Made by a program: the position numbers and the translations under genes. Shown piece after piece: positions 47,237-64,000 of a stretch of DNA of 64,000 bases; position 1 is the stretch's first letter, and each line of letters begins with the position of its first letter. Under the pieces are notes generated by a model, which had not been told where the DNA came from, did no database searches, and saw nothing but the letters and a program-made list of their open reading frames with translations. The stretch is from an uncultured virus (IMG/VR IMGVR_UViG_3300033155_000850) (Duplodnaviria > Heunggongvirae > Uroviricota > Caudoviricetes). The stretch lies in the IMG/VR virus record IMGVR_UViG_3300033155_000850. The stretch is one strand, 5' to 3'.

Positions 47237-47256
47237 TACTTATCCTTTTAACCACT

Positions 47257-47984: not shown

Positions 47985-48257
47985 TTAGCCATTGGCTTTG
48001 TCCTTGGCAGATCCATCAACGATTATAGTTTCACGTTCACGACGGTATTCTTGAATCGATTCTCGTAACGTTTGTGCGGCAACTCGTGCTGTATCTTCTA
48101 GTGCCATTGCAGTTACATCGAAATATTTATCACAAGCTTCTGAATCAAGAGCTAAAGCTATCTTATTCTCTCCATCTACAAACTCTATACTACCCAAATA
48201 CATTCCTTTATCTGGTCCATATTGTTTGAGTTCAATTTTTAATGACGTCATTTTCAT
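47985..48257 (-). CDS. Hypothetical protein
   Basis: Operon packing. Confidence 0.6.
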   Translation of the reverse strand: MKMTSLKIELKQYGPDKGMYLGSIEFVDGENKIALALDSEACDKYFDVTAMALEDTARVAAQTLRESIQEYRRERETIIVDGSAKDKANG

Positions 48258-49048
48258 GTTAATTCAGTCTCATTTTTATCAGAACCTGTACCAGTACTAG
48301 AATTTCTCAATCTAGCAGCGCCGGTTTCTGAAGTATCAACTAATTCTCCACAATCAACACATCTAGCAGTGCCATCACTTTTACTTACGAGATCATGTCC
48401 ATCTACACATGGATTTAAAGACATTCGTAATGTTTTCAACTCTTCACCGTAATCAGGACCTTTATACTTATGACCTCGAATTTCGAATGCCATCTGAAAA
48501 GCCCCATCTATATGGGATTGACATTCATCTAATTTATCAACGAATGCCTGTGTAGATTCTGTTAAACGGTTAAAACGTTCTTGTAATTCATGAATATCGA
48601 TACTTGCTTTATTTAACGTAGCTTCATTAAGTATAGAAAGTTTCTTCCATTCTTCTAACCCCCAATCAGGGTGTCTATCAGTTAAATCACTCATTATTTG
48701 ATCCAAAAATTTCAACACTCTTCATAATACCTGATAGTATGTCTAAACAATCCGAATTCAAATACAAATCTCGATTAGTATGTTTATAAACACACTTTTT
48801 ATCCTGTGTCCACATTTCACCACACTGACATCCGTTTATAAAAACTATGGCCGTGCCACTTGTGCTATTAGGTCGAATATCTATTTTAGGAAGAGCCATC
48901 TTGTTTATCCTTTATTACTGACCTGTTTAAATGAACTATAGCTTTTCTACTAGCTTTCCAAGCATTAAATGCTGTACGTTTTGTTAATTCATTACGTGAA
49001 TATGCATAACCACTATGTTTCCAGTAATCTTCAAATGCTTGTGTGTAT

Positions 49049-49579
49049 TTAGCCATTATTTTCTATGTCCTGTGGTATGAATCGAATAACTTTCTTACCG
49101 TCTTCATTTATTTGAGCACAGTCCATATGTATTCCACCAGGGGGTCGACCGCATACTACACAACCAAAACCATAGTTTTCTAAGTTTTCAAGAGCTTTTG
49201 TTTTCATAGCGTCTACGTCAAAACCTTCACGTTCTAACGTATCACAAAGTATTTTATTTTCAATTTCAAGTTGATCAATACGTTTTTGTTTATCACTTCT
49301 AACGTTTAAAGCTAATCCACCCCATTGAAAACTGGGAGATTCTATACACGTATTACCAAATCTACTATGAATTGTTGTGCAGTAACGAATCAAATCGAGA
49401 ATAGTATTTAATTGTGGCATATTTGAACCAGCTAAAGGTTGATCATCAGAATACGGTCTATAGTCTTGGACCTTTTCTAATTCATCTGCAGCTTTCCATC
49501 TTAACTCCATTAACGGAGATCCCTGTACTCTAGGGTCTGCAGATCGATCTCTTCTTAGCTGGTCAATTAAATCACTCAC
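49049..49579 (-). CDS. Hypothetical protein
   Basis: Operon packing. Confidence 0.55.
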   Translation of the reverse strand: MSDLIDQLRRDRSADPRVQGSPLMELRWKAADELEKVQDYRPYSDDQPLAGSNMPQLNTILDLIRYCTTIHSRFGNTCIESPSFQWGGLALNVRSDKQKRIDQLEIENKILCDTLEREGFDVDAMKTKALENLENYGFGCVVCGRPPGGIHMDCAQINEDGKKVIRFIPQDIENNG

Positions 49580-49865
49580 CGTTTAATTCCTTTAAAGCCG
49601 CTCTAGCGTAATTACCTATTTTATATGTAGACATTAAATTAGTCTTATTAAACTCAATCCAAAATTCTGGTGTAAATCGTTCTTGAGAACACATCCACAT
49701 AAACACAGTATAATCATCATTAGCGTCTACATATGGATTAAATGCCCTAAATGTTCCATTAGCATTATGGTATCCAACGTCACCACCGTCATTTCTATAC
49801 GGCTCTTGATGGTAAATCTTTCTGTCAGGCCAAATAGCCTCTGCTAATTTAATTCTGTCATTCAT
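49572..49865 (-). CDS. Hypothetical protein
   Basis: FNP..DAND motif; operon packing. Confidence 0.55.
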   Translation of the reverse strand: MNDRIKLAEAIWPDRKIYHQEPYRNDGGDVGYHNANGTFRAFNPYVDANDDYTVFMWMCSQERFTPEFWIEFNKTNLMSTYKIGNYARAALKELNGE

Positions 49866-50256
49866 TATTTAAAAGCTTTATTATAGTATCTAGCCGTCTA
49901 CAGATTTCATATTCACCAAAAGTAAGACCACTCAATATCCTTTTACCACTTTGTTCGTAAATCACGTTAGGACTTAAACTAGGTGGACATGCAGAAGTGT
50001 CATGTTGTGTACCGCAAAATGTACATAGACTCATTTCAAAATCTCGGTGGACTAATGTATTTAGGTTTATAACTGTATATCCACTCTTCTATACGACGTA
50101 AACGTTCTTCTACTGTCATTGAATCAAGTTTAAAGAAGTGGTTTATTTTCTTTTCTTTTTCTACTATCTCACCACATAGATTACAATAAGTAGAATGTTC
50201 CCACACTCCTAGTTCTTTACATCTAGGGCATTCTTTTTTATGATCAAAATACGCCA

Positions 50257-52101
50257 TTATATAGATTTAACCTCCCCAAATGACGGCCCGATTTTAGCAC
50301 CAAATGGTAGTGGTAAAAGAATATCTTTATTCCAAAGCCTAGACCAGTTGGTCTTATTCAATTCATTTCTCATATCTAATGCTAACTCTTTTGCATGATC
50401 TACAGGTAGATAATACCAGATACCGTCATGCAAATCTAGAGTGAATATAGCCTCTGGAAATTTACGAGCTATGATAGAAATGGCTGCATTCTTATGGTCA
50501 CCACCACTACCTTGTATTGGAAAGTTAATTGCTGATTGCTCTGTTCCATACTCATATTTACCGGACCAGAATTTAAGATGGAATCTACGACCAGCAATTG
50601 ACTCTGCATAACCTAAATCTTTAGCAGACCATATAGCTTTATCCCAATATTTCTTTACACCTGGGTATCGACTTTTATACATACCCAAATATCTAAATGC
50701 TTCAGCCTTTAGTATGGTAATGCCGTATGTAGTGAAGAATTTATACGCTAAAGATTTAGCTCCAATACGATATTGACAACTAAGATTAAGAAGCTTACCC
50801 GCATATCTATAATTAACCGCTTCAGAGTCTTCAGCCTCTAATAATTCCAACAACTCTTCATAAGGTATTCCAGATATAAACGATGTCATAGATGAATGAA
50901 CGTCTATACCGTTATTAAAATCTTGTAATAGATTGAATTCATTTGCTATTTGACCTACAAATCTGAGTTCTTGTTGTTCTCCGTCAAGCTCACACACAAC
51001 ATATCCGTCAGGAGCTGTGAGCAATGATCTGATAGGACCTTTTCTTGGTAGTTGGTGGTTTGCGATACCACTTGCCCACTTTTTGAGGGTTTTAGCAACG
51101 TAAGTATATCGCCCTGTGTAAGTACCAAATATATTAGGCATGGCATGAGTGTAATTAGAGTTATTATATGCAACCGAATTATTGATCCCATTAATGAATT
51201 TCGATTCAATTGTTGCAAGCTTTTTGAAATTAAGGACTGTTCTGATAAATTTTGCATCTTCTGTACCCATTAATTTATCTTCTAATAGAAGTAAATTATC
51301 TTTAGCTGCACTAGCTTTACCTTTTGGTGTACGTCCTTGTACTGGAAGTCTCTTAGTCTCAAATAATAAGTGTGATAATTGTTGAGGTGAATTTAAACAT
51401 TCCACTGATTGACCTATACTCGCCGCTAATTTTTTCTTGTATGCGACAAATTTAGGTTTTAATGCTAGTGTTCTCTTACTATCTACATGTAAGCCATTTA
51501 ACCATGCATTAGCTACAGGGACTATATTAGCTTGTTCATATACATATCCGGACCTTTGCTCTTTAGGTAGTATAGCCCACATTTCTTCTACGGCTAATCT
51601 AGTAAATATAGCATCATATCCACCGCGTTTTAACCAGTAATCATAGTCTTCACCAGCTATTACAGCGGCTTTTTTAAGGTCAAGAAAATCCTCTAAATCT
51701 GGATGCTCTTTTACATACTTTTCTACTACCGCACTGAGAGATAAACTCCATCTCATCTTATCAGCTACTTGACCATTAACTATCCACTTATATAAAAGAG
51801 CTGAATCTCTCCATTTTATACCTAAAAGTAACTCATATTCGGTTTTAGCTATTAACCAACCTACATCGAATACAGCTCTATGAGCAAATACAGTTTTACC
51901 TTTAAGGTATGCTAACATACCCCATACTTCATCCATATTTTCGGATCGTTCATCGATCTGACGAAAATATCCGTCCGGTCCAGACACAGCTATGGAAGTA
52001 ATTCTAGCATCACCATCTGGTAGACGATAACATTCTAATGCGTACTCTTTACCCGGTACGTTAGATGCTGTCTCTATATCTAATGAATAAAAATCAGTCA
52101 A
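50257..52101 (-). CDS. polA: Family A DNA polymerase with 3'-5' exonuclease
   Basis: Exo DIET / FD, T.TGR, motif A DGEQQELR, motif B R..GK.LNLSCQY, NFPIQGS, motif C LHDG. Confidence 0.93.
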   Translation of the reverse strand: MTDFYSLDIETASNVPGKEYALECYRLPDGDARITSIAVSGPDGYFRQIDERSENMDEVWGMLAYLKGKTVFAHRAVFDVGWLIAKTEYELLLGIKWRDSALLYKWIVNGQVADKMRWSLSLSAVVEKYVKEHPDLEDFLDLKKAAVIAGEDYDYWLKRGGYDAIFTRLAVEEMWAILPKEQRSGYVYEQANIVPVANAWLNGLHVDSKRTLALKPKFVAYKKKLAASIGQSVECLNSPQQLSHLLFETKRLPVQGRTPKGKASAAKDNLLLLEDKLMGTEDAKFIRTVLNFKKLATIESKFINGINNSVAYNNSNYTHAMPNIFGTYTGRYTYVAKTLKKWASGIANHQLPRKGPIRSLLTAPDGYVVCELDGEQQELRFVGQIANEFNLLQDFNNGIDVHSSMTSFISGIPYEELLELLEAEDSEAVNYRYAGKLLNLSCQYRIGAKSLAYKFFTTYGITILKAEAFRYLGMYKSRYPGVKKYWDKAIWSAKDLGYAESIAGRRFHLKFWSGKYEYGTEQSAINFPIQGSGGDHKNAAISIIARKFPEAIFTLDLHDGIWYYLPVDHAKELALDMRNELNKTNWSRLWNKDILLPLPFGAKIGPSFGEVKSI

Positions 52102-52436
52102 TGTTTTGTAACCTCTTTAGGTACTTTTCCTGTACCTTTACATTCAGTACAGTCAATTCCATGTAGAGTTAACTTACCAGCTCCACCGCATCGTTTACAC
52201 GGTTCTCTATCCATAGATATGTGATCTTCTATCAACCAATCGGGTGGTACATTAACACCGTGGCCCCAACCATCTAACTCTTCAAATATGACTTTAACAG
52301 TGCTATTATCAGACGGTCTATTGATAATGACTTTTTTACAACTATCCATAGGTAGGCCACCATATTTACGAGTAGCCCCTTCATGTCTTGATAGAGAATC
52401 AATTCTAATTTTCTTGAGTACTTCTTGATCTATCAT
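52098..52436 (-). CDS. Protein with DnaJ-type CxxCxGxG zinc finger
   Basis: CKRCGGAG...CTECKGTG. Confidence 0.65.
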   Translation of the reverse strand: MIDQEVLKKIRIDSLSRHEGATRKYGGLPMDSCKKVIINRPSDNSTVKVIFEELDGWGHGVNVPPDWLIEDHISMDREPCKRCGGAGKLTLHGIDCTECKGTGKVPKEVTKH

Positions 52437-52439
52437 ACT

Positions 52440-52468
52440 ATTCTACCGTAAATTAACTTCAATGTAAA
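52440..52468 (-). promoter_or_regulatory. Phage promoter TTTACA-N17-TAGAAT
   Basis: Family consensus with upstream AAGGAACCAG. Confidence 0.75.
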
Positions 52469-52476
52469 CTGGTTCC

Positions 52477-52698
52477 TTAAATGGAAGACCTAGAACGACC
52501 AAAATCTGCATTCGGTGGCCCATCACCTTTAGAGTGTAGTTCATGATCTAGTGAGATAGCATCCGGCATCATTTTTATTAGGAATTCAATAGACCTAGCT
52601 ATAGCCGCTGCATGACCACCTTCTAAAGCTGATTCTTGATGAGTATTACCGTGTTTTTTAGGAAAACTTCCTTCCAATGTTATAGTTATTTGTCCCAT
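52477..52698 (-). CDS. Hypothetical protein
   Basis: TAATG coupling. Confidence 0.6.
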   Translation of the reverse strand: MGQITITLEGSFPKKHGNTHQESALEGGHAAAIARSIEFLIKMMPDAISLDHELHSKGDGPPNADFGRSRSSI

Positions 52699-54860
52699 TA
52701 TCTTACCACCTTGAGTGCTGTTTCAGTTTTATTAGCTTCAAATATTTTACGATATTCTAATTGTATTCGTGCTATATCTCCATCATCATATGTACCGTGA
52801 TTACGACATGTATGTAAAACCTGTTTTATTGAAGGACCTTCGACAATTATAGTTGAGTCACTGCCTTCAGCTATTTTAGGTACTATAGCTTGTCTACTTC
52901 TACGACTACCTTTAGATTTAAGAGATTGAAATGTGTTTCTCATAATCTGTTTTAAATGTCCACCACTAATTTGACCACCTCTATGTACATGTGCTCTAAG
53001 AAAGAATTCTATAGAATCCTTAGTCACTATATCAGAATTGAACACACTGTAAAAGTTTTCTACCGCTTCAAGAATCGTTCCTTCTTCATTACTTCTTCCG
53101 GCTTCGACCATGATGTCCATGGAGTCTGTATGCGGGGCTCGTCCCTTGTAGGCGAATTGAGATACATCTCTTTGTGCCATGAAGTTGAAGACTGAGCTAT
53201 AACCCCCGTCCTGCAACCAGTTGTGTAATTTAGTGTAGTATGCCTCAGATCTAGGATTTTGATGGTTGATGTGCACAAAGAAGCGGCGGCTATCAGTTTT
53301 GATATGTACTGCGTCTTCCCTATTCGAGAACAATACAAAGTTTGCGAATATTTCCGTAGCATATGCATCGACTCCTTTTGGCTCAACAGTCTGAGTACTT
53401 TCTGTTACATAACTCTTAAGTTTAGATACAATTTCATATCTTTTCCTAGAGTCTAACTCCTCAAGTTCATTCACTAAAATTAAGACTGAGGAAGTTAAGA
53501 AAGTATTGAATGTCTTATTAAATACACCTGCAGATATGTTTTTAGTATTCCAAAATCCTACTAAATGAGATATAATGTTAAAGAGAAAATTCTTACCAAG
53601 ACCTTCGTGTACTGAAACTATTATAGGAGCCCACGTCATTTTTAAGTACGGTCTTTGTACTAGATGTCCTATCCAATCCATCATTATAGATGCGTCTTCT
53701 TCCATAAGATAGTTCATAAACTCTATAAACGGATCTATGTCTACAGGATCATCAATTATCCTGTGGTCAGGTGCTCTATAGGAATTTATTACATCAGTAC
53801 CTAATACGGGATCGTAATAGGTTTCATCTTTAACAGGTTTATACCCTACAAACCCAGACATTTTTCTATCTGTATGCTTTATCCAACGATCGAATGCTGG
53901 TACAGGTTTTTGTGATCCATCGGCTTTTTCTTCCCATATCATCCAGTTAGCGAATGATGTTTTTGATTCAGTCAATCTAAGAGTAGCTATATTAGATGGT
54001 TTTGAACTATCATAAACTCTAGGTCCAGAGGATATTAATACTAGATTATCTAGCATCCAATCCAACTTATCCTCTATCATTGGCTCGAATTTAGCAAATG
54101 TTTGATCTAATCGTGGAAGATAGTCTTCCATTCTTAAATCATCTCCTTCACATCTAGAAAGAGCTACCTCTAATAATATAACCGCATTATCATATGATAT
54201 TTTACGAGCCCATGATGCCATTAATCTTATAAGGGTATCATGTCTCTCTCCTGACTCTATTATTTTAGGTATACTACCTCGTAATGACGAAATTTCGTTA
54301 TGATCTATAAGTGTTTCGGCACTTTGAGTATTTACTTTCTCTCTTACTATATTTCCTATGGGTAATTTCTCAGATAGTAATCCAATTTCAGCTAGAGTTA
54401 TGTCTTGCAGTAGTTTATAACCATTAACTTCGGTTGGACCTACTACGAAACCTCTATTTCCTCGTATATCTATACCATCTAAATCCATCCAATTAGTTAT
54501 AGATAAAATATAGCGAGAGTCTGGTATATTAGGATATTGATAGTAAAGATGCAAACCATTATTCATGGTTTTAACAGCTAGAGTTTTTATATCTAAATTA
54601 AATTTATCGCGAAGTATTTGAAGGGATTCTTTTCCGTTTTTATCTTTTTTAACATCTACGTCTATAATAAACGCGTTATTACCTGGACACACTCCAAAAC
54701 TATCACAATATTTATATTTACCTGTATACCAAGTTTCTATTTGATTTTTATCGGTGGTGGCTCTATCTGGCCATTCTTTTATTTGTGGATTTCTCTTGTG
54801 AACTGGAAATATAGGTAGTCCACGACCGGCGAAGCTTAACGCGGCATCTAATACTGTCAC
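52698..54860 (-). CDS. Bifunctional primase-polymerase fused to SF3-type helicase (DUF5906)
   Basis: IDVDVK, T...GLHLYY, IDIRG..GFVVGP, G.RHD, EGLGKN, NE, FSN..DA....DSRRF. Confidence 0.9.
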   Translation of the reverse strand: MTVLDAALSFAGRGLPIFPVHKRNPQIKEWPDRATTDKNQIETWYTGKYKYCDSFGVCPGNNAFIIDVDVKKDKNGKESLQILRDKFNLDIKTLAVKTMNNGLHLYYQYPNIPDSRYILSITNWMDLDGIDIRGNRGFVVGPTEVNGYKLLQDITLAEIGLLSEKLPIGNIVREKVNTQSAETLIDHNEISSLRGSIPKIIESGERHDTLIRLMASWARKISYDNAVILLEVALSRCEGDDLRMEDYLPRLDQTFAKFEPMIEDKLDWMLDNLVLISSGPRVYDSSKPSNIATLRLTESKTSFANWMIWEEKADGSQKPVPAFDRWIKHTDRKMSGFVGYKPVKDETYYDPVLGTDVINSYRAPDHRIIDDPVDIDPFIEFMNYLMEEDASIMMDWIGHLVQRPYLKMTWAPIIVSVHEGLGKNFLFNIISHLVGFWNTKNISAGVFNKTFNTFLTSSVLILVNELEELDSRKRYEIVSKLKSYVTESTQTVEPKGVDAYATEIFANFVLFSNREDAVHIKTDSRRFFVHINHQNPRSEAYYTKLHNWLQDGGYSSVFNFMAQRDVSQFAYKGRAPHTDSMDIMVEAGRSNEEGTILEAVENFYSVFNSDIVTKDSIEFFLRAHVHRGGQISGGHLKQIMRNTFQSLKSKGSRRSRQAIVPKIAEGSDSTIIVEGPSIKQVLHTCRNHGTYDDGDIARIQLEYRKIFEANKTETALKVVR

Positions 54861-54933
54861 GTCGAGACTCCAAGACTGGGATTGAGATATGGCATGAGTT
54901 CCCTATACTTATTATAGTTGTCCCCACTGTATA

Positions 54934-54970
54934 AAAAGGGCACCTAGCCTGTACAAGCTATGGTGCCCTT
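54934..54970 (-). terminator. Terminator hairpin inside the primase-gene leader
   Basis: On - strand AAGGGCACC...GGTGCCCTTTTT. Confidence 0.7.
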
Positions 54971-55056
54971 ACACTCGTAACGATGTAGGGAACCGCATGG
55001 GAGTGGTAGCTACAGTTTAAGTGCTTACGCGACCCATACTGTAACTACTATGATAT

Positions 55057-55153
55057 ATTCTACTGTATAAGTACACCAATGTACACAGGGTCCTTAAAGG
55101 ATGCGGATCCCCTTTAGGACCCAGTATACATAGGTGTATCTTCATAGTAGAAT
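55057..55153. promoter_or_regulatory. Divergent promoter pair: (-) TGTACA-N17-TAGAAT at 55085-55057; (+) TATACA-N17-TAGAAT at 55125-55153
   Basis: Both have exact 17-nt spacers and AGGACCC upstream elements; strand-switch point. Confidence 0.8.
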
Positions 55154-55178
55154 AGTATATTATGAGCGATAATATATC

Positions 55179-55592
55179 ATGACGGCCTATAGAACAGCTA
55201 GTTTTTTTAGAGTTACGGCCTATCTTAGATTAAACGGGGAAAAAAGGCCCCTCGGTTTTTTCTTCGTCCGCAACATAAACCCAATTAAAGAAGACCTTGT
55301 GGACCTTCGGATAGTTCCTACGTCTGATAGAAATGGTTTTTTAATTCATATAGAAGATCATGATTGCAGTAAACTCCCAATTGAACTCAAATATGTAGAC
55401 CCTATTACAGCCAAAGGTATATGTCAATTCATTATAGATCATAATGAAGGTGCTACATATGTTAAAGATGATGAGAAATCTATTTGGACTGAATTATTTG
55501 GCAAAATTAACTACGATGTATCATTTCCTAATGATATAATTAGGTTTAAAGGGTTAAATGGTTTTAATTTAAATCTACATAATAGGGCGTAA
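55179..55592 (+). CDS. Hypothetical protein
   Basis: Downstream of promoter. Confidence 0.6.
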   Translation: MTAYRTASFFRVTAYLRLNGEKRPLGFFFVRNINPIKEDLVDLRIVPTSDRNGFLIHIEDHDCSKLPIELKYVDPITAKGICQFIIDHNEGATYVKDDEKSIWTELFGKINYDVSFPNDIIRFKGLNGFNLNLHNRA

Positions 55593-55595
55593 ATT

Positions 55596-55949
55596 ATGTC
55601 TAGTTTATATGAACGGTTTAAATCATGGACAGCTGCAAGACAACGAACTGACATCTGGAGAGCTGTAATAGGGATAGTAATTGTCGCGATAATTTTATCT
55701 CTTTTAACTGGTTGTAGTACTACAGGACCTTCGATGACTGTAGCTGCGTCATATGAAGGTGATGGAGTTATTGTATTAAAACAACCAATATTTCAAAGTC
55801 AAATTGTTTGTACACCTCCTAAACATGAAGTATTTATAAACTATCTACACCATTCAGAAATATTTAAAGAGACTGATGAAGATACGTATGATGGTATTCA
55901 TTTAGGGTATACCCACAATTTCGGTAAATGGATCTGGCAAAAGGATTAA
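55596..55949 (+). CDS. Putative lipoprotein
   Basis: TM plus LLTGC lipobox. Confidence 0.6.
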   Translation: MSSLYERFKSWTAARQRTDIWRAVIGIVIVAIILSLLTGCSTTGPSMTVAASYEGDGVIVLKQPIFQSQIVCTPPKHEVFINYLHHSEIFKETDEDTYDGIHLGYTHNFGKWIWQKD

Positions 55950-55952
55950 ATC

Positions 55953-56246
55953 ATGGATAACACAATCACTTTTACTATTTCTTACTGGTCATTATTTTGG
56001 TCTATCATTATAGCGTTTATAATTATCGTAATACCTTGGTTTTGGGGTGTATCTGATATGTACGTCTGTAAACGCTGGCTAGCTGAGGGTAAAAAAGCTG
56101 TCGATCAATCAGCTGGAGCCTTACACTATTGGTTTGTAAAGTGGGCTATTGCTATGCAATCCAAGTTAGTCGCAGAAAAACTAGGGTTTCCTAGTAAAGA
56201 TTTAAATGAAATCCTTAAAATTCGTGATGACGACAATAAAATATAA
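55953..56246 (+). CDS. Membrane protein (holin candidate)
   Basis: N-terminal TM; directly upstream of the endolysin. Confidence 0.5.
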   Translation: MDNTITFTISYWSLFWSIIIAFIIIVIPWFWGVSDMYVCKRWLAEGKKAVDQSAGALHYWFVKWAIAMQSKLVAEKLGFPSKDLNEILKIRDDDNKI

Positions 56247-56258
56247 CGGAGAAATTTC

Positions 56259-56729
56259 GTGAAAATAAGTAAAAACTTTACTCTAGAAGAATTCCTTGTT
56301 TCACAGACAGCTGTTCGTCATAGTATAGACATGACTCCACCTTTGGACATTCGAAATAACATAGTACGATTTGTAGAAACTATAGCTCAACCATTAAGGG
56401 ACGAATTAGGTTCATCTATCACAATTAATTCTGGTTTTAGACCTGATAAATTAAATACTCTTATAGGTGGATCAAAAACGTCGGCCCACAGATTTGGCTG
56501 TGCTGGTGATATGAGATGCAACGCGGTATCCCCTCTTGGTTTAGCTCAAATGATTATGGATATGGACCTTTTGTACGACCAAGTTATACATGAGTTTGGA
56601 GCTTGGGTACATTGCGGTATTAGATGGGATAACCAGGATATTCGTAAAGAAGAACTTACATCATATAAGAATAAGGTCAATAAAACTATCTATGTACCAG
56701 GCTTACACTCTATAGAGAGCCTTATTTAA
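56259..56729 (+). CDS. Endolysin, peptidase M15 (Zn peptidase)
   Basis: S.NFTL.EF..S, INSGFR...LN..IGG..TSAH..G.A.D, WVH. Confidence 0.9.
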   Translation: MKISKNFTLEEFLVSQTAVRHSIDMTPPLDIRNNIVRFVETIAQPLRDELGSSITINSGFRPDKLNTLIGGSKTSAHRFGCAGDMRCNAVSPLGLAQMIMDMDLLYDQVIHEFGAWVHCGIRWDNQDIRKEELTSYKNKVNKTIYVPGLHSIESLI

Positions 56730-56823
56730 GGATTCTGTGTACATTGATGATAATCTATGATACGTACGCGCGCGCGTAAATATATAAGAGTAACCTTTAA
56801 GGAATCGTCTGTTAAGGATTCTG

Positions 56824-56852
56824 TGTACATTGCTGATTATTCGCAGTAGAAT
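56824..56852 (+). promoter_or_regulatory. Phage promoter TGTACA-N17-TAGAAT driving the small ORF and ncRNA array
   Basis: Family consensus; partial duplicate at 56727-56760. Confidence 0.8.
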
Positions 56853-56881
56853 AGTATTATCAATTAAATATAGGGATTTAA

Positions 56882-57076
56882 ATGAATACACCCAAAACAA
56901 AAATAGGAATAATCAAGGATTATTTCGGCATTATTCCAGACACTACCACAAAAGATTTTATGAATGAGATAAAAGAACTGAGTCTTGAAGAACGATTAGA
57001 ACTAGCTCAAGGCGCGGCCGCAAATATGGGTTTATCTCAGGATAAAGTAGATTTTCCGTTAACCGGAACAGGTTAA
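56882..57076 (+). CDS. Small conserved phage protein
   Basis: IKDYFG....F..EIKELS.EER.ELA. Confidence 0.7.
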   Translation: MNTPKTKIGIIKDYFGIIPDTTTKDFMNEIKELSLEERLELAQGAAANMGLSQDKVDFPLTGTG

Positions 57077-58592
57077 GGAGAGGCGACGGTAAGAATGCAC
57101 TTCCGTACTGACAATGGTAGACGTACTACTCAGTCCTCTGGTGAGTTACACTGCTTTTATCGAGGTATGTTAAAGCCAGAAAGCAGACTTAGCAATCTGC
57201 CCTCTTTTAAATGTAGTCATATCCGGGTTGACCTCCGGTAGGTCATATGACGGCTCTCAAATCAAGAGAGAGTGCATGCGAGGTTTCGCCTTTTAGGGGC
57301 CGGCTCGAATCTAGCCGTTTATAGGGTTTATATGCTCGCGATCCTGTATGAATTGATATGATTAAGAACTATATTAACAGTGTCCGGGAAGGAGCAACCG
57401 TCCGTAGGATAGACCAACTCCACATACGAGCATTTGAGCGTAGTAAGGTCGTTTGAAGATTACGGGATACATTGTTATAAAGATAGCCACTACCATCAGA
57501 TAGAGCTGTCTTCAGGGTAGGTAGACTTGCCTGTTACGAGCTACCTGAGCTTTGGTTCATAGCGATAAAAGCGAATGAACAAGAGGTGTTCTATAGAATG
57601 GCGGTTTGCTCACCCTTTCCGCTTAGTAGAAGGCCCACGCGCTACCGAGAAATGCGTTAAATCGGGAGTCGTTGACATCGACAAAAGTCCTGGTACTGGC
57701 CTAATAAGTCGGTATCAGGCAGATTTTCGTTGGTACCTTATGGCTGTATGATGTTATGTTAGTAAGTATTTCGGACGCGGGTTCGATTCCCGCCACCTCC
57801 ACCACAATGGGGGTGATCGGTTTCGACGGTGTACAGGAAGCATGATGGACAGCACGCTTGGTCTCGTAAAGACTACTAAAACAATCGCAAACGATGAAGT
57901 TTACGATCTGCCGTTGGCATTAGCTGCGTAAGCAGTTAAGCTAATAGGCCGGGTCAGGGTCGCCTGGGAACAGAAGGCCCATTGAGCACTAAAACTGCCG
58001 AAAATATCGGTGAAACTCCGATACTCTCGCAATGATGGCCTATAAGGCTAGTGGGGGTTCGTTTAATACTATAGACTTAAGCTATAGGTGAAGACACCGG
58101 CATTTATTAAAGAAATCAAACTAGGCGATTGCTTCTGCCCAGAATCACTAGAATGATAGACTAGTAGTATCCAAACAAGTACAGGGCAATGTGCATATGT
58201 GGAGAGACGCTAGCCATTCAGGAGTCGCATAGCGTCATCTGTTTGAAGACCTAGCGGCCCAGGTCTAGAGGGGCCGCCCCTATTTTCGGGGACGTTGATA
58301 ATACTTGTCAACGCCCTACTGAAAGGGTATGGTTAGCCCGAGCGCAGAAGTAACTGGCCACCATGTCGCCGGATGGATTATGGTCTTATACGGTGGAGGG
58401 GTTGTATTGCACCTGTCTTACCTGTCGTAAGAAGCAATGCCGAGGAGTGTTGGCTACTCAGCTCTTTTACTCAATGATGTAGCTGCGAAATGTGCGCTGT
58501 GGCGTATACATATATAGATCGATACTGTGATATTTTTTATTCTTTTACAGATCGGTCGACGACCCTACTAGCCACAGATAGTAGGAGTCGTT
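57077..58592 (+). ncRNA. Array of structured non-coding RNAs (about 1.5 kb, no ORF of 60 aa or more)
   Basis: Raised GC, many hairpins and pseudoknots separated by short AT linkers; includes tmRNA. Confidence 0.75.
57740..57980 (+). ncRNA. ssrA: Circularly permuted (two-piece type) tmRNA; tag ANDEVYDLPLALAA*
   Basis: T-arm GCGGG-TTCGATT-CCCGC and CACCTCC-A-CCA (ends 57804) precede the 5' end GGGGGTG (57809) with G3.U70; TTTCGAC D-region; tag ORF 57887-57931; outer boundaries approximate. Confidence 0.93.
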
Positions 58593-58605
58593 TAAAGGGG
58601 TAAGT

Positions 58606-58824
58606 ATGTCTGATGTTATTTGGAATAAAGAACCTCCAACACAATCTGGATGGTATTGGTATAAGTCTGCACACGGGCGAATATCAATGGTTTATCTTAG
58701 ACACGGAGATTTTATTACTTCTTTAGTTCAATGTACTATAAAAAATCCGGAGGGTGTATTAGCTACAGATTTTAAAGGTACTTGGTCACTTGAAATTATT
58801 CCTCCTACTGAACCGGGCTATTAA
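58606..58824 (+). CDS. Hypothetical protein
   Basis: W..EPPT.SGWYW motif; RBS. Confidence 0.65.
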   Translation: MSDVIWNKEPPTQSGWYWYKSAHGRISMVYLRHGDFITSLVQCTIKNPEGVLATDFKGTWSLEIIPPTEPGY

Positions 58825-58973
58825 ATGAAAAAAGCAATGTATGTAATATCAATACATAATAAGGGTGGAGCGTATAAAAACGTTCTTTTTGAAGGCACAC
58901 GAATTGAAGCTAGAGTTAGAGCTAAAGAAATTCGTGATAACAATGGCTCTAGAATTCACTTTGTGAGATATTT

Positions 58974-59348
58974 ATGAGGTCACCTAAACAAATCGTAAGC
59001 GAAATTCTAGATAAAGGTTTAGCAGATAGTACTTGGCGAGAACAATATCCACAAGCTTATGAAAATTTATTGACTTATAGAGAAGATTTAATTAGGTCTT
59101 TTGAATCTATTAAACCTACAGAATATCATTTTTTTACATCTAGCCAAGCTAATTGGGAGACCAGTCCTAGTCTATATACGTGTTTACGTAATCAACGAAG
59201 AGCGGATAAAAGGTTGAAGAACTTCATAATCAAGGGTTGTAACGTATTTAAAGTACCTTTACCTAATGATAAAGAACATCCATATGACATAGACAATTTT
59301 ACCCCTCAAGTGGAGGGTACAGAGTGGCTTCATTATGAGAAGTATTAG
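58974..59348 (+). CDS. Hypothetical protein
   Basis: Operon packing. Confidence 0.6.
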   Translation: MRSPKQIVSEILDKGLADSTWREQYPQAYENLLTYREDLIRSFESIKPTEYHFFTSSQANWETSPSLYTCLRNQRRADKRLKNFIIKGCNVFKVPLPNDKEHPYDIDNFTPQVEGTEWLHYEKY

Positions 59349-59733
59349 TCTCATAGCATCTATTGCCCTATGTACAGGTTGTGCTCATACAGATCAATGG
59401 ACTGATAAAGATACTAAACACTTTGCTACATACGTAGCGGCCGCATCGTTAGATACATTCAGCACAAACCGTTTAATAAACGATTTTTACTATACAGAGG
59501 AACGTAATCCTGTAATAGTAAGGACCTTTGGACAACGACCCTCTAAAAAAGAATTGATAGTTGGAACTATAGTAATCTCCATTACAAATTTCTTTATTGC
59601 TAGAGCTATTCCAGAAAAATATCGTCGCAAATATCTTTCTATATGGACCTTCGGGCATACGACTCTATCTATGTATAATTTTAATTTGTACAACAAATGC
59701 GCAGGAATATATGACTGTGGTTCTATTGACTAA
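59335..59733 (+). CDS. Lipoprotein/membrane protein (DUF5658-like E.NP motif)
   Basis: CTGC lipobox, D...T, ERNP. Confidence 0.55.
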   Translation: MRSISLIASIALCTGCAHTDQWTDKDTKHFATYVAAASLDTFSTNRLINDFYYTEERNPVIVRTFGQRPSKKELIVGTIVISITNFFIARAIPEKYRRKYLSIWTFGHTTLSMYNFNLYNKCAGIYDCGSID

Positions 59734-59917
59734 TGAACTGTGTTTATGTGGTGATCCAGATTGTCATAAATGTTTTCCTAAATATAGTGGTGAAGATGAT
59801 TATTGTTTTGATGAAGATCAATTACGACAACAGGAAGTAGATGATGAAATGATAGAACGTCATCGTCGTAAAGGTGTTGATAATCATTGATCCTACAAAA
59901 TTCCGTTAAGGACCCAG

Positions 59918-59946
59918 TATACTTTGCTGTTTATTTGTAGTACTAT
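59918..59946 (+). promoter_or_regulatory. Phage promoter TATACT-N17-TACTAT
   Basis: Family consensus with AAGGACCCAG upstream. Confidence 0.7.
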
Positions 59947-60115
59947 TTACTTGACGATTAAATTGGAGGTTAAGAAATTGAAAAGATAATCGTTGCAGTA
60001 CTAGCTCCAATAATGATTGGGCTAGCGGCCTATCTAGCGTATACGATCGGCCTACTCATGGTGGCATTTATGATGATATATGCCATATTGTATGAAGGAA
60101 ATAGAGGTAATTGAA

Positions 60116-60634
60116 ATGACTGAAGAAACAGCGGTTGAAGCCGCACCAGTACCTTCGGGTCCTGCAGATGGTATCGCTCGAGGTCGCATGCACGCAGCAT
60201 TAGTTTTTGCGATTAAGTTTAACTCAGGCGAAGCCAAAGACGGTGATCTTGCACGTAAGTATGCAACGACACCAGGTAAAATCAACGACATCCGTAAAGA
60301 TCGTAACTTCAAGTACGTAATTGCTACTATGGCATTTACGGCCGGTGAAGTTCAGGAAGCTAAAGATCGTTTTGCAGCTTCCGTCAATGCGGAAAACAGC
60401 ACGGTTGCTGAAGATCAGCGTCCTGTAGTTATCGAGGATGGTAATACCGCTCTTGATGGCGTACCTAAGACTGAGGGCGACAGTCAGTTGTCTAATGCTC
60501 GTAAGGCTGATCGCAAGCCTCGCGGCAAGTCAGGTGATGAAGCTGAATCTGAAGCAGGTGGCGAAGCCACAGCAGAAGCTGCTGAGGTAGATGCAGCCAG
60601 TGATGACGACCTCGACGGTCTATTGGACGAGTAA
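60116..60634 (+). CDS. Acidic protein with HTH-like segment
   Basis: GAGG RBS; LARKYATTPGKINDIRK; terminator follows. Confidence 0.6.
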   Translation: MTEETAVEAAPVPSGPADGIARGRMHAALVFAIKFNSGEAKDGDLARKYATTPGKINDIRKDRNFKYVIATMAFTAGEVQEAKDRFAASVNAENSTVAEDQRPVVIEDGNTALDGVPKTEGDSQLSNARKADRKPRGKSGDEAESEAGGEATAEAAEVDAASDDDLDGLLDE

Positions 60635-60684
60635 TCGTTCAGCCGCTGGTACACCGGTTAAAGTGTACTAGCATTCACCATGCA

Positions 60685-60708
60685 ACGGGGGCTTCGGCCC
60701 CCGTATTT
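60685..60708 (+). terminator. Hairpin terminator
   Basis: ACGGGGGC-TTCG-GCCCCCGT. Confidence 0.75.
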
Positions 60709-60713
60709 AACTG

Positions 60714-60799
60714 AAGTATTTTGATGGTAATCGGTTAGAGCCGCTGTACAGCATTAAAAAGTCGGGAGACGCTACTCCGATTACCTTCAAAAATACTTT
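60714..60799 (+). ncRNA. Long-stem hairpin RNA candidate
   Basis: AAGTATTTTTGA-TGGTAATCGG pairs with CCGATTACC-TTCAAAAATACTT. Confidence 0.55.
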
Positions 60800-60801
60800 A
60801 A

Positions 60802-60923
60802 CGCGGGATGGCGGAATTGGTAGACGCGCCCAAAGATCTGGGTATAGTGTATAATCCGCGGATTATATGGTTTTTCTAGATAAAACAGCTATTTTGCAGG
60901 TTCAAGTCCTGCTCCCGCTACCA
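60802..60923 (+). tRNA. Atypical 122-nt tRNA-like RNA (no canonical anticodon loop)
   Basis: Acceptor CGCGGGA/TCCCGCT-A-CCA, D-arm GGCGGAATTGGTAGACGC, T-arm GCAGG-TTCAAGT-CCTGC. Confidence 0.8.
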
Positions 60924-60936
60924 AATCGGGTGATGT

Positions 60937-61167
60937 ATGTGGACTAAAAAATCTTACGCTACTGCAGAAGATAATCATAAGGCTGGTCGTTGGACAATTA
61001 GTAATGGCCATGTGGATTTTGATATACACCTAACAATAGACGGCTCTCATGGTACAGGCTACATAGTATCACCAGCAGAAGCCGATGCTTATGCAGATCA
61101 TATCTTACGTAAGCTAAACGAACAGGACTCAATCGAGTTTCGCCCAATACTGCCCCAGGACCTATAG
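60937..61167 (+). CDS. Hypothetical protein
   Basis: ORF after the tRNA-like gene. Confidence 0.55.
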   Translation: MWTKKSYATAEDNHKAGRWTISNGHVDFDIHLTIDGSHGTGYIVSPAEADAYADHILRKLNEQDSIEFRPILPQDL

Positions 61168-61634
61168 TATGAAGATACACCCTAAAGTATATCTTTGTAT
61201 GGCTTTAATATCTCTTACAGCTGTATTTGTATTGTCTATAGTAATGTTCGACCTTATAGAAAAAGGTCGCTATGATGCACTGTTTCTATATCCTATCATT
61301 ATATGGCTTAACTGGTACCAGTATACGGATAAAATACATTTGTATAGACTTTCAAAAAATACTAAATCTCTTTACAAAGATGAATGAATCCAATAATAAT
61401 GGGTATAGACCAGGTGATTGGTCTCTTCCTAAAATGGTGGACTGAAGGACCTCCTGTGAGAAGTGGAATAGCAACTCATGAGGAGCAAGTGATTTTTTAC
61501 GATAGTAAATTCGTAAGAAAGATTTTAGGTCACGAAGGCGGTATAACCACTCTTCCTCAACCGCGTATGGAGGTGAACAGTCGGATTTAACGTCACCGAC
61601 GAAACATGATTAAAATCCTCGGTTGAGGATTCTG

Positions 61635-61663
61635 TGTACATTGCTGATCATTTACAGTAGAAT
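61635..61663 (+). promoter_or_regulatory. Phage promoter TGTACA-N17-TAGAAT, leaderless start at ATG 61670
   Basis: -10 box followed by ATAACT-ATG with no Shine-Dalgarno sequence. Confidence 0.75.
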
Positions 61664-61669
61664 ATAACT

Positions 61670-62107
61670 ATGATAGAAATCGGTTTCACAGGAACTAGGC
61701 AGGGTATGACTATACCTCAACATGCCGCCCTAGTAAAAATCATGTTATCTTATCGTAAGATGACAGAAGCTTCATTTATGTGGCATCATGGTTTATGTAT
61801 AGGCTCTGACGAACAATGCCATAATTTAGCTACGATCTTTGATTTTTACATATTCGGTCATCCACCTATTAACGAAGACCTTGTAGCCGAACTTACTGGA
61901 TTTCGTGGTTTAGCTCCAGCTAAAGGTTATATAGCTCGTAATCATACAATAGTGGACAGTACAGAGATACTTATTGCTACTCCGCATGAACTTAAAGAAC
62001 AAGTACGTAGCGGCACGTGGGCTACTATTAGATACGCTAAAAAACGCGGTAAACGTGTAACTATAATTAATCCTTACGGAAATACTTATGTGTATTCAGA
62101 TCTATGA
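61670..62107 (+). CDS. SLOG-superfamily (DprA/YspA-like) protein
   Basis: IGFTGTR.G, HG.C.G.D, RN..IVD....LIA, SGTW.TIRYA.K.GK. Confidence 0.75.
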   Translation: MIEIGFTGTRQGMTIPQHAALVKIMLSYRKMTEASFMWHHGLCIGSDEQCHNLATIFDFYIFGHPPINEDLVAELTGFRGLAPAKGYIARNHTIVDSTEILIATPHELKEQVRSGTWATIRYAKKRGKRVTIINPYGNTYVYSDL

Positions 62108-62786
62108 GTGAAGATATATTTGGCATCGGTGAACTTAGCTGGAATAATAGCAGACAAAGATGGTGTGGACTTGTAAACTTTTTTGGATCTCTATGTATAG
62201 CGGAATTTAGAGTAACGACCGATAAAGTTGAATCTCCAGTTTTATCGAAAATATCATGAAACCAAAAGATACAGGTTTAGTACATGCTATTAAAGAATTT
62301 TCAAAAGAAGCTTCAGGTATACTGTTTTGGACCGGATTTATGGCTGGCATACTATTAGGCCTTTTGGTCAGTGCAGCTGTACTCATATATTTTAATGCGA
62401 GGATGTATGTTTAAATTTACACAAACAGATGAAATGACAGAAATCATTCAAAAAATGTATTCTGATGGCGGCCTTGTTAATTTAGAAATAGAAAAAGTTA
62501 AGGGTAACCATATAAAACTCTATTGTACCTACAAAGGTATACGATTACTAGAAATGGGACCTATACCACTTAAACGTGTTGGTGACATTATCAACGTAAA
62601 TGATATGAAAATTCGATTAGAAAAATAGTGAAAATTCGAATTGAAGATCACGCTGATACAGAAGCCATGGAGTGTCCTAATTGCTCTGAAATAGCTTTAC
62701 AAGCAATGACTACAAAAACGGATAATAACGGTAAAGATTTCACTGTATACGAATGCAATGAATGCCATATGGAGCAAAATTATTAA

Positions 62787-63262
62787 TGGCTAAATTCGTC
62801 ATAGTGTGTATGAACGATTCACACGGTAAAATCCCGCTCCAACCAGATATATCGTTAGGTAATAAGATATGGGGTATGACCGGAATTACTATGATACAAT
62901 ATGCACGAGTCTTTAATCGTAAAAACTTATTTGGTATAAACGAATCTAGAAGTAAAGATAACGCTAAATTAAATGCTTATAGAATACTTAAAAACGTAAA
63001 TTCTATAGACACAGACACATTTATTATATGTCTAGGTAAAGAAGTAGCCACAGCATTTGGTCTATATACAGCTATGCCTTTAAAGTTCAAAAAAATTCAA
63101 ACAAAAACGTGGGCAGCATATCTCCCTTATGAGTCTGAGTTTAATAGACGTTCTAGTTTAAGCGAGAGGAGACTTGCAGCCACTGAATTTATGCAGAGTG
63201 TAGGTGCAGCCGCAATCGGAGAGATTAGTGAAGATGATTTACATCACCATTTCGCTCAGTAG
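62787..63262 (+). CDS. Possible uracil-DNA-glycosylase-like fold protein
   Basis: F.R.NL, IICLGK.VA.AFG, YLP.ES..NR. Confidence 0.4.
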
Positions 63263-63328
63263 CTCTCTACTTTACTCTGATATAAACGTTCAGTACTATG
63301 TATAACTAGCAGAGAATTGTAGAGAGCC
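63260..63328 (+). repeat. Dispersed hairpin element, copy 5
   Basis: GTATAACTAGCAGAGAATTGTAGAGAG is identical to the copy at ~699-725; GCTCTCTAC/GTAGAGAGC closing stem. Confidence 0.8.
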
Positions 63329-63330
63329 TA

Positions 63331-63792
63331 ATGAATAGATATAGTAGTTGGTTTGATGTAGGACCTTTAGGCTGTGGACGAACTACAGCTATAGCTAAAG
63401 CATGTAAAAGTATCAACGCTACTATGTTATGTGCAACATCTAACCATGCTAAAGAGGTTGCTAATGAACATGGTATTAAAACCGCGTCTATACAGAATGT
63501 CGACCATGGTTATAGAGGTCCATTCTTAGCAGATCATTATGCTATACAGTCTATAACTCATGATTATGAGGCTATGATAGCAGAACGAAACATAGAAATC
63601 AGTGCATTAAAACTCCGTATAAATAGACAAAGTTCATTGATAGATAGATATAGAGAACAACGAGATACTTACAAAAAAACATATTTAAAATCACTTGAAA
63701 TTAAGGATGAATACGATAAACTGAAGAAGCAAGTTTGCTGTTCATGTTGCGGTTCAATTTTAGAAACCGGTGAATGTGCTAGGTGTGAATGA
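63331..63792 (+). CDS. Degenerate P-loop/coiled-coil/Zn-ribbon protein
   Basis: GPLGCGRTT, FLADH, CSCCG...CARC. Confidence 0.5.
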   Translation: MNRYSSWFDVGPLGCGRTTAIAKACKSINATMLCATSNHAKEVANEHGIKTASIQNVDHGYRGPFLADHYAIQSITHDYEAMIAERNIEISALKLRINRQSSLIDRYREQRDTYKKTYLKSLEIKDEYDKLKKQVCCSCCGSILETGECARCE

Positions 63793-63822
63793 TATATGTC
63801 AACAATCAAAGTTAGGACCCAG

Positions 63823-63851
63823 TATACATTGCTGTTATTCTACGGTAGAAT
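63823..63851 (+). promoter_or_regulatory. Phage promoter TATACA-N17-TAGAAT, leaderless start at ATG 63858
   Basis: Same TAGAAT-ATAACT-ATG as at 61658-61672. Confidence 0.75.
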
Positions 63852-63857
63852 ATAACT

Positions 63858-64000
63858 ATGGATATATTTGCTATAAGATCTACTTCAGATGAGGCTAAAC
63901 ATAAATTACGCGTCGATGATAGTGAATTCACGATCGTAGAATGGCAGGCTATGATAGGTCGTCTATATGCTAAGGCTGCTCGTTTTAGAAAGAAGACTAA
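63858..64000 (+). CDS. Partial hypothetical protein (MDIFAIRSTSDEAKHKLRV...; runs off the window)
   Basis: Open frame to the window end. Confidence 0.55.
   Translation, partial: MDIFAIRSTSDEAKHKLRVDDSEFTIVEWQAMIGRLYAKAARFRKKT

Follow-up and report, generated by a model that had tools for sequence, protein, structure and literature searches.

Few phages encode a tmRNA, and there is no agreement on what it does during infection; it has been proposed that phage tmRNAs keep hijacked ribosomes running, tag host proteins or titrate SmpB. Phages also carry large non-coding RNAs beside their tRNA genes, such as GOLLD and ROOL, which have Rfam families, and the tRNA gene cluster of phage T4 reportedly includes two stable RNAs, C and D, which were seen as RNA species. 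Phage-borne two-piece (circularly permuted) tmRNAs have already been described: they are known from the OM43 phage Melnitz and from pelagimyophages, and of the 133 unique phage tmRNA structures considered in PMC9004378, 53 are two-piece. For the two-piece tmRNA of the Rhodocyclaceae and Azonexaceae, a betaproteobacterial lineage, which is represented by the models RF04321 and RF01849, see PMC11915505.

We analysed a 64,000-nt stretch of DNA from an uncultured virus of the class Caudoviricetes (hereafter the window), which belongs to a siphovirus-like relative of Acinetobacter phage Effie and Xanthomonas phage Xp15 (terminase identity 52%). No tmRNA is annotated in Effie (bases 1-50,000 of 53,598 inspected). 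An initial annotation of the window had described an operon of unexplained structured RNAs around a tmRNA. The presence of the tmRNA was confirmed: ARAGORN found a permuted tmRNA whose tag frame is intact, RF04321 matched at 120 bits (cut-off 47) over the full model (positions 1-213) and RF01849 matched at 84.9 bits (cut-off 50) over model positions 1-355, with the Rfam alpha model covering 57693-57983. The gene has the permuted order, in which the T arm (57777-57793), the 3' acceptor strand and an encoded CCA (57802-57804) precede both the 5' acceptor strand and the tag frame. The acceptor piece is separated by a linker of 4 nt (CAAT, 57805-57808) from the coding piece, which starts at G57809 (GGGGGTG). 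In the 7-bp acceptor stem this 5' GGGGGTG pairs with the CACCTCC which precedes ACCA, and the third pair is G.T, corresponding to G3.U70, the identity element for alanine. The tag frame (57887-57931) encodes ANDEVYDLPLALAA, which has the hydrophobic ...LAA end, with TAA as the stop codon and GCA (alanine) as the resume codon. No member of the SmpB family was found among the 84 ORFs of the window which were scanned. This intact two-piece tmRNA is the sole identifiable gene of the 1.5-kb stretch. A candidate partial duplicate of its acceptor region at 58600-58652 was rejected as a chance match, having a score of 22.4 which was reached by 9 of 1000 shuffles and exceeded at eight other places in the window (22.8-25.0).

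Pattern scans anchored on the tmRNA returned 1 viral locus and 109 metagenome stretches, and then 0 and 66 bacterial loci. Exact copies of the T arm, of the 3' strand of the acceptor and of the beginning of the coding piece were found in the 66 bacterial loci, mostly from Rhodocyclaceae and Azonexaceae, and also in the 109 metagenome stretches; in an alignment of 13 sequences (the window and 12 relatives) the T arm and acceptor were invariant. As well as having a T arm and acceptor strand identical to those of the phage gene, the Rhodocyclaceae and Azonexaceae genes share its 4-nt linker in most loci and the ANDE... start of the tag in the relatives which were checked. However, the tag of the phage tmRNA is longer, and while a terminator hairpin lies ~100 nt past the tag in the 7 named bacterial loci which were aligned, the phage gene is without a terminator for ~270 nt. 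The phage gene also has a 3' motif, CCTGGGAACAGAA, which is common to the viral/metagenomic loci L029 and L011 and to the alpha-type Rfam consensus. The closest relative of the tmRNA is that of L029, with the tag ANDEVYDNRLAA, and weak similarity to this locus continues to ~58060.

In L029 and in other low-GC, phage-like loci, the tmRNA sits in an ORF-free gap of 108-450 nt, compared to 1,530 nt here. This gap was measurable at 24 of the 110 viral and metagenomic loci, 7 of which were cut by the end of the contig, and was zero at the other 86, where the DNA is GC-rich and the anchor position fell within an ORF. On these comparisons, the flanks lie outside the conserved tmRNA unit. As in Melnitz, a complete permuted ssrA is found behind a phage promoter in a lytic-type phage where no integrase is seen, but the ssrA of Melnitz has a glutamine riboswitch in its 3' part (PMC9004378), whereas here no riboswitch family was matched.

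The stretch at 57077-58605 is non-coding. It had been claimed that 1.5 kb here contain no ORF of at least 60 aa, and this was borne out: none with a start codon exists in the interval 57076-58606, and the longest stop-to-stop frames in the stretch are of 72 aa (on the minus strand, within the tmRNA) and 60 aa. The 3-base periodicity of the stretch was 0.99 compared to 1.01-37.5 across 42 tiles of 1516 nt, with a median of 5.6 for 600-nt tiles. The six read-through frames of the stretch gave no match to Pfam and, using tblastn, none to 50,697 phage genomes, and frame 1 compared with 5.8 billion proteins (shorter proteins only) produced 549 candidates, 0 of them at E ≤ 0.01. Reassignment of one or two stop codons was rejected as it opens at most 251 codons, on the wrong strand. 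The first protein gene past the gap encodes 72 aa and had no match in PHROG and Pfam searches (Table 1).

The GC content of the stretch is 43-54.5% (200-nt windows; ~45-47% in the flanks) compared to 31-39% in its neighbours and 38.3% in the whole window, with sharp shifts at 57077 and ~58540. The GC enrichment which the initial annotation described is therefore present, but it is not unique, since 12% of all 200-nt windows have a GC content of at least 45%, among them the coding regions 28061-29110 and 29361-30370. Likewise, the motif GGACCTT is truly absent as claimed, but the 2,952-nt gap which spans the stretch is an ordinary one for a motif with 44 sites in 64 kb and other gaps of 8.6, 4.0, 3.7 and 3.4 kb.

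The promoter which had been placed at 56824 was identified as a sigma-70-like site, TGTACA-17-TAGAAT (-35-like TGTACA at 56824-56829, -10 TAGAAT at 56847-56852), inside a 45-nt motif which has one partial copy and six full copies in the window (56812+, 61623+, 59906+, 55113+, 55097- and 52480-). A scan of viral contigs with this motif gave 7 single matches, 0 of which were related to the window. The 64-aa ORF said to lie behind the promoter is present; it had no PHROG match, and its sole Pfam-type signal was a sub-threshold match to HTH_38 (E 0.03). Because the stretch is on the same strand and the next copy of the motif downstream of the 56812 unit is that at 59906, co-transcription of the stretch from this promoter is plausible.

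Table 1 Features of the tmRNA locus, with positions given in the 64,000-nt window.
Feature	Position	Strand	Basis and description
Partial promoter-motif copy	56726..56754	+	upstream element and -35-like part, without the TAGAAT -10
Promoter of the unit, member of the 45-nt motif family	56812..56853	+	consensus scan and motif copies
64-aa ORF, first gene after the promoter	56882..57076	+	GC phage-typical
Upstream flank	57077..57688	+	non-coding, ~45% GC; no family, homologue or folding signal
Hairpin of 12 bp bordering the tmRNA gene on its 5' side	57689..57719	+	57689-57700 pairs with 57708-57719
Circularly permuted (two-piece) tmRNA gene	57712..58022	+	ARAGORN, Rfam RF04321 and RF01849
Trailer behind the tmRNA	58023..58253	+	non-coding; without family or homologue
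Terminator-like element	58254..58287	+	all-GC 7-bp hairpin (58254-58260 pairs with 58271-58277), then CCCTATTTTC
Second hairpin and sigma-70-like site	58288..58333	+	58293-58300 pairs with 58306-58313
Two adjacent strong hairpins	58517..58592 (58517-58557, 58558-58592)	+	immediately upstream of the ribosome-binding site of the following gene
72-aa ORF, first protein gene past the gap	58606..58824	+	AGGGG ribosome-binding site 7 nt upstream

We searched the stretch, and each flank alone, against Rfam 15 (4227 models, among them those for riboswitches, ribozymes, introns and large ncRNAs) at E ≤ 10. There were 0 matches in 57060-57715 and a single snoRNA match at 17.6 bits in 57990-58610, which was judged to be chance; the earlier statement that no block other than the tmRNA resembles a known family was thus upheld even at this threshold. 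ARAGORN found no tRNA in the flanks at default or 90% thresholds, and the ‘tRNAs’ and extra ‘tmRNAs’ which appeared when it was relaxed to 70-80% were rejected as poor folds. Canonical GC-rich T arms were found only at 57777, in the tmRNA, and at 60896, with none in the flanks.

The flanks were also compared to other genomes. Distant-mode blastn against the 50,697 phage genomes returned 9 records, which matched the T-arm part of the tmRNA alone, and blastn, nhmmer and tblastx against the 66 bacterial and 110 viral/metagenomic tmRNA loci (~176) matched the tmRNA only; one tblastx run gave 351 matches of which 8 lay outside the tmRNA, and all 8 (22-28 bits) were judged to be chance. No relatives of the flanks were present in the whole records of L001, L002 and L011. 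Ten loci around relatives of the endolysin (34-39% identity) had neither a tmRNA nor any similarity, scans anchored on the primase and on a neighbouring 124-aa protein yielded no locus, and the terminase relatives at 80-91% identity (L202-L204) are fragments without the region. The nearest record, G001, lacks the part corresponding to 44001-64000. By sequence comparison, the flanks (~57077-57690 and 58023-58592) are therefore orphan among phage genomes, ~176 tmRNA loci, related-phage records and 5.8 billion proteins (frame 1).

The initial annotation had divided the region into foldable blocks separated by AT-rich linkers, and this description was not sustained. The blocks have z-scores of -1.9, +0.3, -0.9, -1.5, -2.75, -1.65 and -2.96, and unbiased windows do not differ from the coding background: 150-nt windows had a mean z of -0.17 in the upstream flank and -1.26 in the downstream flank, compared to -0.45 (sd 1.11) for 112 coding windows from the same phage (Mann-Whitney: P = 0.71 upstream, P = 0.17 downstream), and 80-nt windows gave -0.64 in the flanks vs -0.16 in the background. 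Of 1000 shuffled sequences, 334 had a local AT variance at least as large, and 67 had at least as many AT-rich windows. The block drawn at 57996-58102 overlaps the 3' part of the ARAGORN tmRNA gene (to 58022). It should be noted that the minimum free energy (MFE) z-score is a weak test, because the real tmRNA itself scores just -2.0 and the tRNA-like gene at 60802 just -2.3, and so an ordinary score is compatible with a functional RNA in the flanks. A processing stem around the tmRNA (57294-57316 with 58262-58282), which was suggested by the global MFE with a pair probability of ~0.67, was rejected since the best inverted repeat between the flanks was matched by 218 of 300 shuffles; the whole-flank duplex energy was reached by 42 of 200 shuffles, so there is no long-range pairing above chance. 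The hexamer CTTTTA was counted 5 times where 0.44 would be expected, an excess without significance when all 6-mers are taken into account.

Three hairpin clusters, at the positions expected for a border hairpin, a terminator and a 5' UTR, are exceptions to the background-like folding of the flanks. The border hairpin has a pair probability of >0.7, and the 80-nt windows at 57640 and 57660 give z-scores of -2.7 and -2.6. The second is at the terminator-like element, where 58236-58325 has z = -2.95 with 0 of 200 shuffles folding as well, and the 80-nt window at 58240 has z = -3.6. A broken T-run, TATTTT, begins 3 nt past the stem, and the element was missed by the consensus scan because its loop is 10 nt long. 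We infer that the tmRNA transcript would end here. The hairpin which follows is overlapped by a sigma-70-like sequence, TTGTCA-17-TATGGT (58305-58333), which is a possible promoter for the downstream genes. The third cluster lies in 58500-58605 (z = -3.87; 80-nt window 58520, z = -7.1), and its two hairpins are probably 5'-UTR elements.

The explanation which we favour, at about an even chance of being right, is that the stretch is a non-coding cassette with one demonstrable product, the complete two-piece tmRNA, and that the flanks are its lineage-specific leader and trailer. We infer its transcription, RNA ends, processing and termination as follows. Rightward transcription would start from the promoter at 56812-56853 and pass through the 64-aa ORF into the upstream flank, which would be the leader of the tmRNA precursor and comprises ~610 nt without detectable structure. 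Host tRNA-processing enzymes would then cut the transcript at the tRNA-like domain, RNase P cutting at G57809 and the 3' end being trimmed at the CCA which the gene encodes (57802-57804), and with the 4-nt linker lost the acceptor and coding pieces would remain base-paired together. The tmRNA could be charged with alanine via G3.U70 and, together with host SmpB, would rescue stalled ribosomes and add the tag ANDEVYDLPLALAA. The trailer would extend for ~230 nt to the terminator-like GC hairpin, and the last ~300 nt would be a promoter followed by the hairpin-rich 5' UTR of the next gene. The flanks themselves probably have no independent product. It counts against the cassette that 1.2 kb without a product is unusual in a tightly packed phage genome, and the GC content of the flanks compared to that of the neighbouring genes argues for recent acquisition or for selection, e.g. 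for RNA structure. As it stands, the surrounding 1.2 kb is unexplained yet unremarkable-looking.

A possible if unlikely reading is that the flanks encode stable ncRNAs of an undescribed kind (at least one, or else a single large multi-domain RNA), which would be transcribed together with the tmRNA and released from the same precursor. RNA genes in AT-rich genomes classically stand out as ORF-free regions with a GC content above that of the surrounding genes, as the flanks do, the flanks share a strand and promoter with a real RNA gene, and the downstream flank is slightly stabler than the background. Another RNA gene of this phage is non-standard too: it is tRNA-Leu-like, lies at 60802-60923 and was missed by default finders. 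The idea is modelled on T4 RNAs C and D, unexplained stable RNAs which are reportedly transcribed and processed along with tRNA-type genes, but those were seen as RNA species whereas the flanks are known as DNA sequence. GOLLD and ROOL are alike in being hundreds of ORF-free, GC-richer nucleotides adjoining a tRNA-type gene in a phage; however, the flanks match 0 of 4227 Rfam families at E ≤ 10 and are therefore not a member of any curated large-RNA family. Against a stable RNA there are also the lack of any homologue, and hence of covariation support, folding no better than that of coding sequence, a block and linker pattern which is not significant, and flanks without a T arm or tRNA-like fold. 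Nor is there a repeated binding motif such as a Csr/Rsm-type sponge would have: GGA occurs 14 times compared to 20.6 ± 3.1 in shuffles and ANGGA 2 times compared to 5.4. In its fullest form, in which a ~610-nt leader and a 570-nt trailer are undescribed stable RNAs or a multi-domain RNA embedding the tmRNA, released by tRNA-processing enzymes, restricted to this poorly sampled phage lineage and serving translation takeover or counter-defence, the proposal is rather unlikely.

It is quite improbable that the flanks are functionless, decaying remnants of a former tRNA array, of protein genes or of donor DNA which arrived with the tmRNA. Their GC content, which is unlike that of the host phage and changes sharply at both ends, would fit such an origin, as would the absence of any relatives; the promoter fragment duplicated at the left border (positions 56726 and 56812) may be the scar of a recombination, and the degenerate-looking tRNA-Leu-like gene suggests that RNA genes may decay in this phage. 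However, no trace of a remnant was found: the flanks gave no Pfam or tblastn match, no residual 3-base periodicity, no T arm or tRNA match at relaxed thresholds and no similarity to the flanks of the 66 bacterial and 110 viral/metagenomic tmRNA loci; old junk should also have drifted to the GC content of the phage or been lost. Several very small protein genes (<50 aa) missed by ORF lists are very improbable: there are ORFs of 48 aa (57095-57241) and 58 aa (57575-57751), and a few small ORFs have Shine-Dalgarno-like motifs, but there is neither 3-base periodicity nor a Pfam match, frame 1 matched no small protein among the 5.8 billion, the ribosome-binding site of the 48-aa ORF is poorly spaced, the peptides look un-protein-like and the 58-aa ORF overlaps the tmRNA gene. 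That the stretch acts as DNA, as a replication origin, packaging site or recombination site, is similarly improbable, since, although ORF-free regions of phages often hold such sites and this one is 2 kb from a divergent promoter region adjoining the primase gene, it is GC-rich rather than AT-rich and contains no iterons or significant direct or inverted repeats, and a better candidate for an origin is the divergent region at 55000-55200, which is strongly palindromic (z to -6.5).

For the tmRNA cassette, this example adds a siphovirus-like lineage to the phages with a complete two-piece tmRNA gene, and in this gene the T arm and acceptor match the Rhodocyclaceae and Azonexaceae type while the 3' motif matches the alpha-type consensus. 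If the flanks were expressed as stable RNAs, they would represent a new class of phage RNA without relatives in current collections, and the tRNA-Leu-like gene at 60802-60923 would join the same toolkit.

The initial observation holds in part. We found that the 1.5-kb gap in coding sequence reported by the initial annotation is real: a 64-aa ORF stops at 57076, a 72-aa ORF starts at 58606, and no ORF of at least 60 aa lies between them. The longest stop-to-stop frames inside it were 72 and 60 aa, it had no 3-base periodicity (0.99, vs 1.01–37.5 in 42 equal-length tiles) and it stayed closed when one or two stop codons were reassigned. Its six read-through frames gave no matches to Pfam or, by tblastn, to 50,697 phage genomes, and frame 1 matched no small protein among 5.8 billion; that the stretch encodes small proteins is very improbable. 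GC content was higher (43–54.5%) than in the flanking genes (31–39%), but similar stretches lie within coding sequence elsewhere in the window, and the absence of GGACCTT from the gap, although true, is ordinary spacing for a motif that occurs 44 times in 64 kb. The expected number for the window is 5.4, and the + strand carries 42 of the 44 sites, whatever the gene direction. The motif looks like a strand-specific DNA signal, e.g. nick sites or a packaging/recombination signal.

The sole identifiable gene in the gap is a circularly permuted tmRNA. ARAGORN placed it at 57712–58022 with the tag ANDEVYDLPLALAA, and Rfam matched tmRNA_permuted (RF04321; 120 bits) and alpha_tmRNA (RF01849; 84.9 bits) over 57693–57983. 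The acceptor part has a canonical T arm and an acceptor stem with G.T as its third pair, and CCA is encoded at 57802–57804; a linker of 4 nt separates it from the coding piece, which begins at 57809. The exact T arm, acceptor strand and coding-piece start were also found in 109 metagenome stretches and 66 reference-genome loci, nearly all of the latter from Accumulibacter, Dechloromonas, Azonexus and other Rhodocyclaceae or Azonexaceae. Among full-length relatives, a metagenome contig of 2.2 kb (L029, tag ANDEVYDNRLAA) is the closest. In a 13-gene alignment, the phage-like copies (window, L029 and a further locus, L011) and the alpha-type consensus had a 3' motif in common, while the bacterial genes had a terminator approximately 100 nt past the tag.

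Two-piece tmRNAs are already known from phages: the Melnitz paper (PMC9004378) gives 53 among phage isolates, and the one describing the current tmRNA database (PMC11915505) gives 79 phage sequences. Among the papers listed on two-piece tmRNA and phages, only the Melnitz work and its preprint treat such a phage gene. The identifiable part of the gap is a further example of an already described gene type, the phage two-piece tmRNA.

No family besides the tmRNA had been recognised initially, and we agree: Rfam gave no other matches at E ≤ 10, including for each flank alone (approximately 57077–57690 and 58023–58592). ARAGORN found no tRNAs in the flanks at default and moderately relaxed settings and only poor folds at 70–80% settings, and a scan for canonical T arms returned only the tmRNA's own and one at 60896. 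No search route yielded homologues of the flanks: none of approximately 176 loci with a like tmRNA shares flank sequence, and in the low-GC loci of that set the tmRNA gap is just 108–450 nt. Relatives of the phage in the viral collection searched (terminase 80–91% identical) are present only as fragments without the tmRNA region, and the nearest database record (G001) is a 33-kb fragment without that end of the window.

The foldable blocks described initially, with borders set by eye, did not stand out. The seven non-tmRNA blocks had z from +0.3 to −3.0, and unbiased 150-nt windows resembled 112 coding windows from the same phage (upstream mean z −0.17, P = 0.71; downstream −1.26, P = 0.17; coding −0.45 ± 1.11). 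In 80-nt windows mean z was −0.64 in the flanks vs −0.16 in the background, with z ≤ −2.5 in 8.5% vs 5.8%. GC-rich blocks and AT-rich linkers alternated no more strongly than in shuffles, and long-range pairing between the two flanks was at chance level. A weak thermodynamic signal is compatible with function: the true tmRNA itself reached a z of only −2.0. Three hairpin clusters (57689–57719, 58254–58287 with the hairpin after it, and 58517–58592) do exceed the rest, at the places expected of a terminator and a 5' UTR.

Features of the window by coordinate
Feature	Coordinates	Strand	Remarks
3204-aa ORF	19813–29427	+	tail module
Four tandem GGACCTT	32198–32229		junction of rightward and leftward gene blocks
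Promoter motif, full	52480	-	
Promoter motif, full	55097	-	
Promoter motif, full	55113	+	
Promoter motif, partial	56726	+	
Promoter motif, full	56812	+	
12-bp hairpin	57689–57719		tmRNA 5' border
All-GC hairpin and T-run	58254–58287		then second hairpin overlapping sigma-70-like site
Two strong hairpins	58517–58592		directly upstream of next gene's ribosome-binding site
Promoter motif, full	59906	+	
Acidic 184-aa ORF	60080–60634		GC-rich (~50%)
GC hairpin terminator	near 60686–60701	+	3' of 184-aa ORF
~21-bp hairpin	60712–60800	+	z −4.1; immediately 5' of tRNA-Leu-like gene
tRNA-Leu-like gene	60802–60923	+	missed by ARAGORN (default) and Rfam (gathering score)
Promoter motif, full	61623	+	

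The promoter proposed upstream of the gap belongs to a conserved 45-nt motif and is real in that sense. Its copies, six full and one partial, each lie ahead of a gene block. The motif has three parts: an upstream element TTAAGGAyyC, then GTrTACATTG and AGTAGAAT. One divergent, back-to-back pair (55056–55158) has strongly palindromic surroundings (z to −6.5). The 184-aa ORF and its hairpins form a second GC-rich stretch downstream of a promoter copy, the one at 59906. The tRNA-Leu-like gene beyond has a 6-bp acceptor stem with a C/T mismatch on top, a 5' part including the D arm 91–94% identical to cyanophage tRNA-Leu genes, a canonical T arm (60896–60912) and ACCA encoded at its end. The centre (~66 nt) is some 30–40 nt over length; one reading places a two-hairpin insertion of 40 nt here and, after it, an anticodon arm whose loop contains TAG. 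The gene may be an expanded tRNA, a decoy or a pseudogene.

The phage is of lytic type and siphovirus-like, with an overall GC of 38.3%, and encodes a terminase (52% identity to its counterparts in Acinetobacter phage Effie and Xanthomonas phage Xp15), scaffold, tail tube, tape measure and the 3204-aa tail ORF. It also has genes for DNA polymerase, primase, helicase, ligase and nucleotide modification. The final 1.4 kb of the tail ORF and the next two ORFs (GC 47–48%) equal the tmRNA region in GC richness. Genes for a dCMP deaminase, thymidylate-synthase-like and kinase-like proteins, a PRA-PH-like pyrophosphohydrolase and a Nol-like carbamoyltransferase (34060–38069, - strand) suggest that the phage DNA contains a modified base.

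The best-supported reading of the stretch, to which we give about even weight, takes it as a tmRNA cassette whose leader and trailer are unusually long. Against it, phages rarely carry 1.2 kb that lacks a product, and flank GC shows no drift toward that of the neighbouring genes. For these two reasons we retain, as unlikely, the initial proposal that the flanks are novel stable RNAs, although the tests applied lend no support to structured RNAs. Decayed remnants or donor DNA are somewhat more doubtful still, and a DNA-level site is barely plausible. The tmRNA cassette would start with the promoter (56812–56853), the 64-aa ORF and a leader of ~610 nt, continue through the two-piece tmRNA, a ~230-nt trailer and the terminator-like hairpin, and be followed by a possible promoter, a ~270-nt hairpin-rich 5' UTR and the downstream genes. 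From knowledge of the family, the tmRNA would be processed by host tRNA enzymes and charged with alanine, and its tagging would be SmpB-dependent.
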